A stretch of DNA of 64,000 nucleotides from Alphaproteobacteria bacterium (lineage in GTDB: Bacteria > Pseudomonadota > Alphaproteobacteria > Rs-D84). The stretch is from assembly GCA_017472065.1 (NCBI GenBank), contig JAFURB010000008.1, forward strand, positions 107 to 64,106, given 5' to 3'. Below, piece after piece: positions 43,536-50,083 of the stretch (position 1 is its first letter; every line of letters begins with the position of its first letter). Below the pieces are notes generated by a model. It worked only from the letters and a program-made list of their open reading frames with translations, searched no databases and was not told where the DNA came from. The translations under genes and the position numbers were made by a program.

Positions 43536-44825
43536 TTATTTTTTCATTGTCGCCCATATTTTTTTCAGATTTCCCCATGTCGTTTCCAGGTCTTTTTTCA
43601 GTGTGTCATAGTACTTGGTTGATATGGAAACATTAAATAAACTCTTGGTTAGCGCGGGAATCGCCGTCATAAACATCGCAATAAATACACCCATTATTAC
43701 AATCGTTATCAACGAATCGTTTCGCATCATTAGACCATCAATTAATAATTTCGAATCGCCTGATTCAATCGCCTGGAACAGACGGTCGCCACCACCCCAA
43801 CGCCCAAATATCGCGTTCAAAAACATAATTGAAAAAGATACAAACAAGCCAGTTACCGCAAGGCCCGCCGTGGCATTAATCACATCATCGACAATTGCAC
43901 GCATGTTTTTATTGTGCGACCCCTGGGGGAATATATTCCACCCCTTAAACAACCAGCCCAGAAAAGTCAACGGCAACAGCACCAGATCCATGGAAAGTTT
44001 AATAAATATTTCCAGAAAATATAGCGGTATCGGCAATAACGCCGCAAAAAACAGCAACATTACCAAAAGCCCTGCCGCAAACATCGGCACATTAGGGAAT
44101 ATTGGAACATCCCACATAATTTTATGCATGTACTTTTCATTAAATGCCATATTCATCAATGTCCATCCCGTTGTCATACCAACACCCGTCATTTGATGCA
44201 CATTGGCCACCTGGCACGCCAGGTTGTGTCGCAATTTGGGCGAAAATGCACCCTGGGATGCGGCATCTGATGATACAGTCACAGGGTCCGCAATCGCCGT
44301 TGCAACAAGGCATGAATTAAATGTTTCATCACCGATAACTGCACGATTCATATAAAGCCCGATATTGAACACAGGTTCAATCACAACATCTGTTAAAATT
44401 CTTGGAACCGGGGCCAATAACACCGCTGACACAATTCCCAGTTTTACAAAATGCGTTACAAACTTGTCCGACAATGCCCAACCATCAACATTACCGGTAT
44501 CGGTGGCAAATGCCTTGTATAACTGCCACGCAATCCAGATTAATGTTACCGCAATTGCAAAGGGAATTATAAATCCCCCCAGCGCATCATACACACGTGG
44601 CAATATCCCAGACATCGTTGACATGATGTCGGAAAACATTTGACATGACCAACAACTGGAAAAAAACTTCATCGCATCGGCCATATTTACAGGCGCCATT
44701 GAACGGTATATTGAAAACCCAGCAATAGCCCCCACACCCGCAACCGCACCAACAACCCATGGCGCAACCGCCGATGCCCCAAACGGCAAGAACGATAAAA
44801 ATGTTATCCAAAATTTTTTTAACAT
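43536..44825 (-). CDS. polytopic membrane protein, VirB6/TrbL-like paralog 1
   Basis: I trimmed ORF 43536..45092 to the Met at MLKKFWITFLSF, because the longer form would overlap the divergent gene. 429 aa. Has SCWSCQMF, a loop with a Cys pair, a TM cluster and a Lys-rich tail KKDLETTWGNLKKIWATMKK. Confidence 0.6.
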   Translation of the reverse strand: MLKKFWITFLSFLPFGASAVAPWVVGAVAGVGAIAGFSIYRSMAPVNMADAMKFFSSCWSCQMFSDIMSTMSGILPRVYDALGGFIIPFAIAVTLIWIAWQLYKAFATDTGNVDGWALSDKFVTHFVKLGIVSAVLLAPVPRILTDVVIEPVFNIGLYMNRAVIGDETFNSCLVATAIADPVTVSSDAASQGAFSPKLRHNLACQVANVHQMTGVGMTTGWTLMNMAFNEKYMHKIMWDVPIFPNVPMFAAGLLVMLLFFAALLPIPLYFLEIFIKLSMDLVLLPLTFLGWLFKGWNIFPQGSHNKNMRAIVDDVINATAGLAVTGLFVSFSIMFLNAIFGRWGGGDRLFQAIESGDSKLLIDGLMMRNDSLITIVIMGVFIAMFMTAIPALTKSLFNVSISTKYYDTLKKDLETTWGNLKKIWATMKK

Positions 44826-44863
44826 ATCTTTTGTTTTAACTATATCATATTTTGCAACAAATG

Positions 44864-44872
44864 TGATATAAT
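44864..44872 (+). promoter_or_regulatory. candidate extended -10 promoter (TGATATAAT) for the four-gene membrane-protein operon
   Basis: Lies in the 73-nt divergent spacer, 27 nt upstream of the ATG at 44899. Confidence 0.3.
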
Positions 44873-47357: not shown

Positions 47358-48793
47358 TGAAGGGAAAAATAATTATCTTGGCCGTGAAAATTATTATGGG
47401 CGCAATCGCACTGGGGTTGGGGATATGGTATTTATCATCTGCAATCGGTGGGGCGGCATTGACATATTCCAGCATGGATAATTTTCTGACCGCGATTGGC
47501 GCTGAAAATGGCGATATTGCCAGTGTGAACGGATGTTTTATGTGTCGATATATAACAGATTTATTTTCTGTTATTGGTGATGCGACAGAACTGTTTTGGA
47601 ATGCGATTTTGGACGGTCTGTTGGTTCTTATTGCGTTGGGATTTGGAATATATATAACATACACTGGTGTCGCGCATGTATGGGACGCGACAAAAAAGAC
47701 CGCCGGGTCCAAGGTTGAAGATAAAAAAATTGAATTTAAGCCATGGTTTGAAAAAATATCAAAACAGGGTGTGCGGGTATTTATTGTTGCGGCACTGTTG
47801 GGCGGTGCAGCATTGGGTGGCCCAGAAACATTAAAGGCATTAACACATTTGGTAATTACACCTGTGCTGTATCTGGGGGGACTGTTGGGGATGGCGGCCA
47901 GCGGTGTAACCGATGCCGCGACATGTGCGATGGGCGCGGTGGACGCAGGCGAAATGATGTCACCAGTTCTGGGGCCGTTTATGTGTGTTATTGGCAATGT
48001 TAACAGTGTTGTGTTGGCGGGGGCCGCGGGTGGATTTTCACTGATGAACTATGCATGGTTGGGGATGGGCGGTGGCGCGTTCACATGGATTGCTGGATTA
48101 TCATTGGTTATTATGTTTTTGGTTGTCGGATTTGATTTGTTTTTCCAGATATTATCTGTGGTATTCAAACTGATATTCTTAATCATATTCTTGCCTTTAT
48201 TCATCGCGGCATTTGCATTTGAAGGGGCATGGAAATTGGCCAGTGGCCTGTTCGACAAGGGTATAAACATGTTAATTAATGCCGCAATAAAAATTGTGGT
48301 TATCACACTGAAAGTTGTGATTATATACGCAACAATATCATACGCAGCAGATTCTTATTTCCCGGGTCCCGTTGATGGATACAGTGTGATGTTACCACCA
48401 ATGTTGGGGCAAAGTCCGGAAAATCCAGATGTTGAAACACTGTCTGTGATGAACGTGTTTTCAGAATGCGAACGCGTGTCGTTGGTTGACGGAAAAATGG
48501 ACAAGGATAAATTTACATCTTGTTTTTCCGCCCAGCGCGCAATGGTCGAACGCCAATACCCGGGGGCATTTGATTTCTTGGACGATGGGTGGGATTTCTT
48601 GGTTATGATGGCGGCGTTGTTTGCGTTGTATTTCTTGGTACTGCGTGACAAGGTCGAAGGAATACTGGCATCGGTTGGGAAAGAAGACTTTGACTTTGGT
48701 GGTCAAATAAAGCAATTAGGAAAGAACATTTGGTCTGTGCCAAAACAAATTGCAAATGCAGTCGGCAAGGCCATGGATGAAAGGGCAATATAA
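47357..48793 (+). CDS. polytopic membrane protein, VirB6/TrbL-like paralog 4
   Basis: 478 aa. NGCFMCRYITDLFSVI and loop Cys pair (TCAMGAVDAGEMMSPVLGPFMC). TAATG overlap with paralog 3. Confidence 0.6.
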   Translation: MKGKIIILAVKIIMGAIALGLGIWYLSSAIGGAALTYSSMDNFLTAIGAENGDIASVNGCFMCRYITDLFSVIGDATELFWNAILDGLLVLIALGFGIYITYTGVAHVWDATKKTAGSKVEDKKIEFKPWFEKISKQGVRVFIVAALLGGAALGGPETLKALTHLVITPVLYLGGLLGMAASGVTDAATCAMGAVDAGEMMSPVLGPFMCVIGNVNSVVLAGAAGGFSLMNYAWLGMGGGAFTWIAGLSLVIMFLVVGFDLFFQILSVVFKLIFLIIFLPLFIAAFAFEGAWKLASGLFDKGINMLINAAIKIVVITLKVVIIYATISYAADSYFPGPVDGYSVMLPPMLGQSPENPDVETLSVMNVFSECERVSLVDGKMDKDKFTSCFSAQRAMVERQYPGAFDFLDDGWDFLVMMAALFALYFLVLRDKVEGILASVGKEDFDFGGQIKQLGKNIWSVPKQIANAVGKAMDERAI

Positions 48794-50083
48794 TTGATAA
48801 AGCGCATATGTAAATTTTTATCGATTATTATAATGGCACTGACGGTGGTCGGTGGTGGCGGTGCATGGGCGGCATCTAATCTGGGGACGGGTGACATTGG
48901 TGATTATGGCTCATGGGCAACAGATGCAAATCGTGATGCGTTAATTGGGTCACTGAATACCGACATTAATAAATTTGCCCCAAACGCAACAAAACAACTG
49001 GTTGCGGACTATGTCCCGGTTGAGGCAAAAGTTGGCCTGGCATTTATGAACGCATTGTCACATGTGGCACATATTATTGATAATTCACTGGCCCGGTTCG
49101 CAATCATATTTATAATTTTGATGTACATATTCTGGATTATGGGTGAATCATATCATAATATCCAAACTGGGTGGGATGTAAAAAAACTGGGCAAAGAAAT
49201 TATAATTAAAACACTAAAGGTAATGTTCTGGATTTCTGTGCTGACATTTGGGCCGGCGGAAATGTTCATGATGCTGATGACACCAATTGTCTTGCTGGGG
49301 ACATATATCGCAGACACAATATTAAACGCAGTATCAATGACAATTGGTATTCAATTGCCCGATACATGTGCCGCAATTCACAACTATGTATCTGCAAATA
49401 TTTCGGCAACATCTGTGCTGGATGCAAATTCAGCCGCAAATATAATGTGTTTGCCAACACGGTTGGCGGGATATTTTTCCAGCGGTGTTGCACTGGGGTG
49501 GGAATATATTAAACAATCAATCGGAACCAGTGCATTTTTGTTTGTACTGGGGATTGTGTTTATTATTATGTTTATTGTAAATGCATGGAAATTTACATTT
49601 ATGGCATTTGGTGTTATCGCTGACTTGTTCCTGGCAATCATAATGTTGCCGTTCACAGCCGTCGCAGAAACCGTTACAAAAACATCATACAAGGGCATAC
49701 CTGGTACGGTCTATAACGCGTTTACCGGGTTATTTAAGACAGAATCATTAAAAGCACAAATTGGTCGCGTTGTCAGTGCCGCGATATACTTTGTCGTTTT
49801 AGCCGTCGTTATTGCAGTTTGCGTTGCATTAATGTCTGGTTTTGTTTCCGTTGATACAACGACATCAATTCCAACATTAAAAGACACCGGCATAATGCCA
49901 ATGTTACTGACCGGATTTTTGGTATGGTACCTGGCAAGCAAGGCCGATGAAATCGCAAAAGATTGGGGTGGCAGTATCAAAGATGAATTTGGTAAAAAAC
50001 TGCGTGGTGATGTCGAAACATTGGCAAAAGATGTCTATAATACCGGCAAAAAAATTTGGGAAACCATTAAAAAAGAAGACTAA
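48794..50083 (+). CDS. polytopic membrane protein, VirB6/TrbL-like paralog 5
   Basis: 429 aa. TTG start abuts the stop of paralog 4. Signal peptide ...GGAWA, loop Cys pair (DTCAAIHNY...ANIMC), tail KKIWETIKKED. Confidence 0.55.
   Translation: MIKRICKFLSIIIMALTVVGGGGAWAASNLGTGDIGDYGSWATDANRDALIGSLNTDINKFAPNATKQLVADYVPVEAKVGLAFMNALSHVAHIIDNSLARFAIIFIILMYIFWIMGESYHNIQTGWDVKKLGKEIIIKTLKVMFWISVLTFGPAEMFMMLMTPIVLLGTYIADTILNAVSMTIGIQLPDTCAAIHNYVSANISATSVLDANSAANIMCLPTRLAGYFSSGVALGWEYIKQSIGTSAFLFVLGIVFIIMFIVNAWKFTFMAFGVIADLFLAIIMLPFTAVAETVTKTSYKGIPGTVYNAFTGLFKTESLKAQIGRVVSAAIYFVVLAVVIAVCVALMSGFVSVDTTTSIPTLKDTGIMPMLLTGFLVWYLASKADEIAKDWGGSIKDEFGKKLRGDVETLAKDVYNTGKKIWETIKKED

Follow-up and report, generated by a model that had tools for sequence, protein, structure and literature searches.

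A run of five genes for polytopic membrane proteins, here called g1 to g5, occupies positions 43536-50083 of a 64,000-nucleotide (nt) stretch of an Alphaproteobacteria contig (the whole of which we refer to as the window). An initial annotation, made from the letters of this stretch, described the products as paralogs with the architecture of VirB6/TrbL, the polytopic inner membrane proteins of type IV secretion systems (T4SSs). The comparisons reported below make it probable that the five genes are extremely divergent, compact VirB6 paralogs, part of a T4SS that is passed on vertically and lies scattered over the chromosome in Candidatus Enterousia, a gut lineage in the literature on which we found no mention of a secretion system (PMC12306168).

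Organization of the five-gene array

All five genes are intact open reading frames (ORFs) of 395-478 amino acids (aa), with coordinates that were confirmed on the sequence. The VirB6-like product of g1 (43536..44825, minus strand; 429 aa) has an extra N-terminal hydrophobic segment and a CWSC motif; its start is the ATG at 44825, an alternative 518-aa reading running into g2. The other four VirB6-like paralogs lie on the plus strand. The g2 product (44899..46170; 423 aa) has a signal-peptide-like N-terminus and no CxxC motif, the g3 product (46170..47357; 395 aa) carries CWGC at its extreme N-terminus and lacks a pair of loop cysteines, and the g4 product (47357..48793; 478 aa) combines a CFMC motif with a loop cysteine pair and an extra cysteine pair. 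The gene g5 (48794..50083; 429 aa) begins with TTG and again encodes a signal-peptide-like N-terminus; some gene callers prefer an ATG 13 codons downstream, and the longer N-terminus is kept in orthologs.

Inspection of each junction confirmed that g2 to g5 are tightly joined, by TAATG overlaps at g2/g3 and g3/g4 and by a TTG start in g5 that abuts the g4 stop codon, and that g1 diverges from them across a 73-nt spacer (44826..44898). This spacer is presumed to be a bidirectional promoter region: sigma-70-like hexamers are present on both of its strands, and a promoter and terminator scan of the array region counted no more hexamers than the shuffled expectation. As initially annotated, the array is flanked by uvrD and a hypothetical gene, the latter encoding 170 aa.

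Distribution and inheritance of the array

A scan of species-representative genomes returned 252 loci, of which the best 80 were used for synteny counts. The g1 homologs, more than 860 in number, are all unnamed and without Pfam domains. The best 80 loci derive from metagenome-assembled genomes (MAGs) labeled Candidatus Enterousia, uncultured Alphaproteobacteria or ‘Rickettsiales’, recovered from the guts of humans, ruminants, birds and other animals; one of the genomes is closed, at 958,618 bp. Candidatus Enterousia belongs to the order Rs-D84 and has genomes of <1 Mb that lack the tricarboxylic acid cycle and respiration (PMC12306168).

All 80 of these loci have g1; g2 is present in 79-80, g3 in 77-79, g4 in 76-77 and g5 in 72-76, and contig ends account for most of the gaps. 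The genes are intact and in unchanged order in essentially every species, at 44-88% identity to those of the window, and the flanks (uvrD, rpmE, inositol monophosphatase) and gene order are constant in about 80 species. GC content over the array (0.41-0.42) matches that of the surroundings. Identity follows species divergence, an indication that the array is vertically inherited.

Relationship among the five proteins

Pairwise identity among the five proteins is 17-25%, and BLASTP similarity ranges from 3e-11 for the strongest pair, g1-g3, down to none. Paralogy was judged by hhalign comparison of ortholog-based family profiles, with reversed sequences as controls. The g1-g3 comparison gave 98.8% (score 86), followed by g2-g5 (96.5%), g3-g4 (95.9%), g4-g5 (95.2%) and g1-g5 (92.6%); global scores for these pairs were 42-86, and the alignments were collinear and nearly full length. 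Reversed sequences scored at most 18 globally and 28 locally, and g2-g3 and g2-g4 are linked transitively only. On the strength of these profile comparisons, we accept that all five descend from a common ancestor, in agreement with their original description as paralogs.

Homology to VirB6

As a reference for canonical VirB6 we used 12 genes from annotated plasmids, four of which were checked with Pfam TrbL (71-148 bits). A profile merging the five families aligned with these 12 VirB6 proteins at 93.6% in local mode (hhalign, E 2e-7, score 61) and at 97.5% in global mode (E 2e-11, score 61) over 289 columns, the aligned core taking in the VirB6 ‘P-x-F ... F..T’ segment. Values of 91-96% were obtained after relatives from other lineages had been added to the merged profile, and an independently built alignment gave 84.1%. 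Control profiles reached 0.5-6.8% when reversed and at most 4.2% in twenty block-shuffled versions. Taken alone, only the g5 family gave a suggestive match to the plasmid VirB6 profile, at 58-74%; matches of 62-74% had scores of 33-42, where reversed controls for single families stayed at or below 32 in local and 14 in global mode. Of the five, g5 is the closest to canonical VirB6. The link between the family and plasmid VirB6 is visible only to profile-profile and fold methods, HMMER being blind to it.

Predicted structures point in the same direction. AlphaFold2 models were produced for g1 from 27 close orthologs (predicted local distance difference test score 60) and for g5 from an alignment of all five families (score 78; predicted template-modeling score 0.66), and both were compared by Foldseek with 350,542 PDB chains. 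The top matches were chains of TrwI, the VirB6 protein of R388, which took ranks 1, 2, 4, 5 and 7 for the g1 model and ranks 1-3 for the g5 model. Foldseek probabilities for TrwI/VirB6 were 0.93-1.0, against at most 0.38 for matches other than VirB6. For these predicted models, the fold match is a ranking result and no tight superposition.

A further connection is provided by a protein that is recognized both by the family and by Pfam. Of 1.84 billion cluster representatives, the g5 profile matched only 123, and in the tail of these matches (library-wide E 8e-4) lies P0482, which at 29.1 bits clears the Pfam TrbL cut-off of 25.9 and which NCBI names ‘type IV secretion system protein’. For its full-length form, the 866-aa protein P0489, alignment to the family profile gave 97.2% across 274 columns and placed the loop cysteine pair in register, and HMMER gave 73 bits against the merged family; the same region matched canonical VirB6 at 78% by hhalign and 31 bits by HMMER. 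The gene for P0489 (positions 3915-6515 of locus L098) lies directly downstream of one for a 1086-aa protein (655-3915) that has an M23 peptidase domain, matches the family hidden Markov model (HMM) at 36.8 bits and carries CWSC at residue 216; this larger protein is possibly a fusion of VirB6 with a peptidase, in a mobile-element-like setting. Together, the profile comparisons, this bridge protein and the Foldseek rankings support superfamily-level homology of the five proteins to VirB6, and with it the VirB6/TrbL-like assignment made at the outset.

Conserved architecture and cysteines

Hydropathy and cysteine conservation were scored on 73-81 orthologs per gene. All five proteins share a first transmembrane (TM) helix, TM1, followed by a loop of ~100-130 aa, a dense TM cluster and a tail, which bears out the common architecture first proposed for them; the same hydropathy pattern is seen in the 12 plasmid VirB6 proteins. 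The Lys-rich character that had been ascribed to every tail is clear in g1, g2 and g5 and weaker in g3 and g4.

The CxxC motifs picked out in the initial annotation (SCWSCQMF, QCWGCGVF, NGCFMCRY) are 100% conserved among orthologs of g1 (C58/C61), g3 (C15/C18) and g4 (C60/C63), with the consensus C-[W/F]-x-C-x-x-F; g2 and g5 have lost the motif. Standing before the first TM helix, C-[W/F]-x-C is a putative redox or metal site specific to this subfamily. The loop cysteine pair, proposed for four of the five proteins, is equally constrained: C172/C204 of g1, C174/C189 of g2 and C192/C219 of g5 are 100% conserved, as is C210 of the g4 pair C190/C210, its partner C190 being 99% conserved. A second invariant pair, C371/C389, occurs in g4. 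The loop pairs align to the central loop of VirB6, which is periplasmic in the five-TM model of the Agrobacterium tumefaciens protein. Since most of TrwI/VirB6 is also periplasmic in the R388 structure (PMC12857230), it is plausible that the invariant loop pairs form periplasmic disulfides.

A Trp after the central TM hairpin, invariant in VirB6, has been cited as essential in a study of Rickettsia (PMC2653234); in the 12 plasmid proteins W196 is invariant. After an ‘LP(L/F)...’ helix, g1 has W291/W296, conserved at 90-100%, and counterparts in g2 and g4 were recognized by reading only.

Related arrays in other lineages

One weak match to the g5 profile (E 9e-5) is the ‘Rickettsiales bacterium’ MAG protein P0473. 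Two loci from other uncultured lineages contain comparable arrays: L099 has five tandem VirB6-like genes (2915-12532; 524-843 aa; GC 27%) and L100 has four (5605-12000; 421-793 aa; GC 47.5%), translationally coupled and in housekeeping surroundings. The merged HMM matches these copies at 45-133 bits, except for one L100 copy at 19 bits, and the g5 profile recognizes the last gene of each array; none of the proteins is recognized by Pfam. They are larger (extended) than the products of g1 to g5, with which no one-to-one orthology is evident. Most of the copies in both loci carry C-[W/F]-x-C before TM1, where it is missing in the 12 plasmid VirB6 proteins, so this motif and the tandem habit are older than Enterousia.

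Other type IV secretion genes

The VirB8 and VirB10 homologs that had been noted at 3.9-8.6 kb of the window are confirmed by Pfam, with a VirB9 gene between them. VirB8 (3930..4607, plus strand) scores 50.5 bits against Pfam VirB8, VirB9 (4637..6160, plus strand) 72.3 bits against CagX, and the 808-aa VirB10 (6174..8600, plus strand) 60.8 bits against Pfam TrbI and 61.8 bits against NCBIfam T4SS_VirB10. VirB9 ends in a C-terminal SPOR domain (21.7 bits), a peptidoglycan-binding domain. The VirB10 protein has an ASH/choice-of-anchor-D-like domain at its N-terminus and, beyond TrbI, a Cys-rich C-terminal extension of ~200 aa. This islet stands 35 kb from the array, beside secE-nusG-rplKAJL-rpoBC.

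The coupling protein VirD4 was found in other Enterousia genomes as a 747-aa protein matching Pfam T4SS-DNA_transf at 178 bits (in locus L055 at 17343-19586, minus strand, and also in L054, L065 and L101-L171). Its neighbors are housekeeping genes (truB, mutS, rRNA-modification genes), and in 71 metagenome loci it is solitary, with no other T4SS gene within 10 kb. T4SS islets adjoin rpoBC, uvrD and truB/mutS. Because VirB8/9/10 sit beside rpoBC and VirD4 stands alone among housekeeping genes, the Enterousia T4SS is scattered in single islets, as in the Rickettsia ‘archipelago’ (PMC2653234).

For VirB4, VirB11, VirB3 and VirB2, Pfam was run on the large ORFs of the window and tblastn over 83 Enterousia and 71 VirD4-centered loci, with one-step extensions beyond both window ends; none of the four turned up in these searches. 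Two tandem ORFs of 113 aa that follow virB10 (8929-9270 and 9285-9626, plus strand), called as genes in other assemblies too and matching no family, were weighed as candidate VirB2 pilins, but both are soluble and lack any hydrophobic segment, which ruled them out.

Neighboring genes

Directly downstream of g1 lies the gene for the 170-aa protein (42955..43467, minus strand), a conserved soluble protein present at this place in 80/80 species loci at 64-91% identity, which puts its conservation above that of the VirB6-like genes. Pfam, NCBIfam and the PDB gave no match for it. The protein may be an operon partner of g1; a tie to the T4SS would follow from synteny alone.

Two large proteins are encoded farther away on the minus strand, one of 748 aa (37764-40010) and one of 742 aa (33375-35603). 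They have signal-peptide-like N-termini and Ser/Thr/Arg/Ala-rich regions, are weakly alike (E 5e-10), contain no Pfam domain, and could be surface or secreted proteins. The 748-aa ORF was also considered as a degenerate VirD4 and rejected, tblastn with Enterousia VirD4 being empty in the window.

The window, from a very small genome, further encodes a ComEC/Rec2-type competence protein (23965-25914, plus strand; Pfam Competence, 177 bits). ARAGORN called a tRNA-Cys with anticodon ACA (12491-12573, minus strand) inside a Na+/H+ exchanger ORF; an Rfam scan fails to confirm it, so the call is probably a false positive.

Discussion

The assignment of the array to VirB6 has to be set against several contrary observations. 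Pfam and NCBIfam HMMER searches with g1 to g5 gave no match, TrbL being absent at E<=1 for the five proteins and at E<=5 in 0/82 family members, and HMMER profiles of the family score plasmid VirB6 at <3 bits. By the curated TrbL model (Pfam PF04610) or the NCBIfam T4SS models, then, the five proteins formally fall outside the family; the profiles of g1 and of the merged family likewise found no VirB6 among PDB sequences. With hhalign, single families other than g5 are not significantly similar to VirB6. Foldseek E-values are ~0.04-0.06, target-normalized TM-scores 0.40-0.47 and root-mean-square deviations 10-14 Å, and g3 and g5 lack a Trp at the position aligned to the invariant Trp of VirB6. 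Neither the window nor ~2.4 Mb of related loci yielded VirB4, VirB11, VirB3 or VirB2. Proteins rich in TM helices are, in addition, prone to profile matches driven by composition, against which the controls speak here. The initial annotation had suggested the HMMER comparison as a check and had been cautious in its wording, a caution that the outcome justifies. It had also stated that a lack of TrbL/VirB6 homology, combined with the absence of virB3, virB4 and virD4, would leave an unexplained paralog family; since a relationship to VirB6 was detected and the lineage does have VirD4, that combination is not what was found.

Several of these observations would suit a lineage-specific polytopic family outside the T4SS, for example a transporter or a family acting in envelope biogenesis, for which the likeness to VirB6 would be an artefact of TM composition. 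The five proteins match nothing in Pfam or NCBIfam, the array lies among housekeeping genes and away from virB3/virB4, the Foldseek E-values are weak, and Rs-D84 genomes are described as lacking standard transporters and encoding many hypothetical membrane proteins (PMC12306168). We nevertheless regard this explanation as improbable. Controls that keep composition reach at most 7%, whereas the real comparison reaches 84-97.5%; the bridge protein, itself above the Pfam TrbL cut-off, gives an alignment of 274 columns that takes in the loop cysteine pair; and two independent models select the same solved protein from 350,542 chains. Nor is the housekeeping setting peculiar to the array, the other T4SS genes of the lineage also standing singly among housekeeping genes. 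That the array is left over from an integrated conjugative element, or from a plasmid-derived transfer region, is still less convincing, and we consider it very improbable: VirB6 genes are typical of conjugative elements, and the bridge protein of L098 adjoins an M23-peptidase gene and a helix-turn-helix regulator in a mobile-element-like context, yet the array itself has neither relaxase nor integrase, is not bounded by repeats and does not shift in composition; its flanks and gene order are constant, and its divergence follows that of the species, a sign of vertical inheritance.

As divergent VirB6 paralogs, the five proteins invite comparison with the Rickettsiales vir homolog (rvh) system, here drawn from published descriptions. 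Rickettsia has five VirB6 copies with ~80% aa divergence, of 674-1154 aa, in which flanking regions surround a domain of ~413 aa (PMC2653234); Ehrlichia and Wolbachia have four (bioRxiv 10.1101/2025.08.29.673095; PMC12857230), and Anaplasma belongs with them among the four-copy rvh lineages. Enterousia resembles rvh in having several tandem, mutually very divergent copies (75-83% divergence), five of them as in Rickettsia, and in being an alphaproteobacterium with a reduced genome whose T4SS is dispersed in chromosomal islets and vertically inherited. The two systems differ in that the rickettsial copies are extended and are recognized by Pfam TrbL/COG3704, whereas the Enterousia copies, at 395-478 aa, are essentially the bare domain, escape Pfam and NCBIfam, and carry invariant cysteines. 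The rvh array follows virB3-virB4; that of Enterousia lies between uvrD and the 170-aa gene, with one copy divergent, and the order is Rs-D84, not Rickettsiales (PMC12306168). The compactness of the proteins and the placement of the array apart from virB3-virB4, which the initial annotation had already set against the Rickettsiales pattern, are thus real differences, no virB3 or virB4 lying within the 64-kb window.

Relative to canonical VirB6/TrbL (A. tumefaciens VirB6, R388 TrwI and plasmid VirB6; PF04610), the Enterousia proteins share the succession of TM1, long loop, TM cluster and tail, profile-profile homology over ~290 columns including the P-x-F segment, and TrwI as the best structural match. 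Canonical systems encode a single VirB6 of ~290-390 aa between virB5 and virB8, without conserved cysteines; the Enterousia family has the loop cysteine pair and C-[W/F]-x-C, a longer loop and an added N-terminal 40-100 aa, and similarity at the level of HMMER is absent.

In the R388 machine, the central stalk stands on a pentamer of VirB6, which N-proximal helices anchor in the membrane (PMC9259494); pilin recruitment and the formation of a protochannel have been proposed as functions of this pentamer (PMC9259494; PMC12857230). By homology with that machine, the VirB6-like proteins of Enterousia would assemble the base of a T4SS stalk. We infer that the five paralogs probably act together as a hetero-oligomer, possibly with one of each in the pentamer, rather than as redundant spares, because all are retained in a reduced genome in a fixed order, four are translationally coupled and the fifth shares their presumed promoter region. 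In its most explicit form, the five would be non-identical protomers of one heteropentameric stalk base, one gene for each C5 position, with gene order and coupling enforcing a 1:1:1:1:1 ratio and with C-[W/F]-x-C and the loop disulfides as adaptations of the subfamily. This one-of-each arrangement is the most economical reading and an attractive hypothesis, of which no earlier statement was found in the literature searched, and it would fit the five copies of Rickettsia. In this full form we hold it to be rather unlikely; the four copies of Ehrlichia and Wolbachia argue against a strict rule.

The copies might instead be alternatives to one another, VirB6 homologs that form separate homopentamers for different substrates, hosts or conditions, or that are partly redundant. 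The multiple virB6 genes of Rickettsiales have been called ‘presumably functionally redundant’ (bioRxiv 10.1101/2025.08.29.673095), copy number varies (four in Wolbachia and Ehrlichia, five in Rickettsia, five in L099, four in L100), and the Enterousia paralogs differ in their N-termini and cysteine content. Redundant copies would, however, be expected to be lost under strong genome reduction, yet all five are kept intact; translational coupling through TAATG favors a fixed stoichiometry; and VirB6 paralogs of Ehrlichia interact with each other, according to the title of Bao et al. 2009 (PMC2612412) as cited in PMC12857230. We therefore give this alternative some weight while considering it doubtful as an account of the array.

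The reason for the multiplication of VirB6 in Rickettsiales has been called ‘a mystery’ (bioRxiv 10.1101/2025.08.29.673095). The array described here shows such multiplication outside that order, in the gut lineage Rs-D84/Enterousia, and it marks out a subfamily of VirB6 to which current Pfam and NCBIfam models are entirely blind; because they miss it, T4SSs in genomes of this kind are under-annotated. Its presence points to cell-to-cell interaction, through contact with host or prey, as part of the Enterousia lifestyle. Compact copies conserved in >70 species offer an alignment deep enough for co-evolution analysis and multimer modeling of hetero-oligomeric VirB6. If the heteropentamer is real, it would give a structural reason for the VirB6 ‘proliferation’ in Rickettsia, with Enterousia representing a minimal version that lacks the rickettsial extensions.

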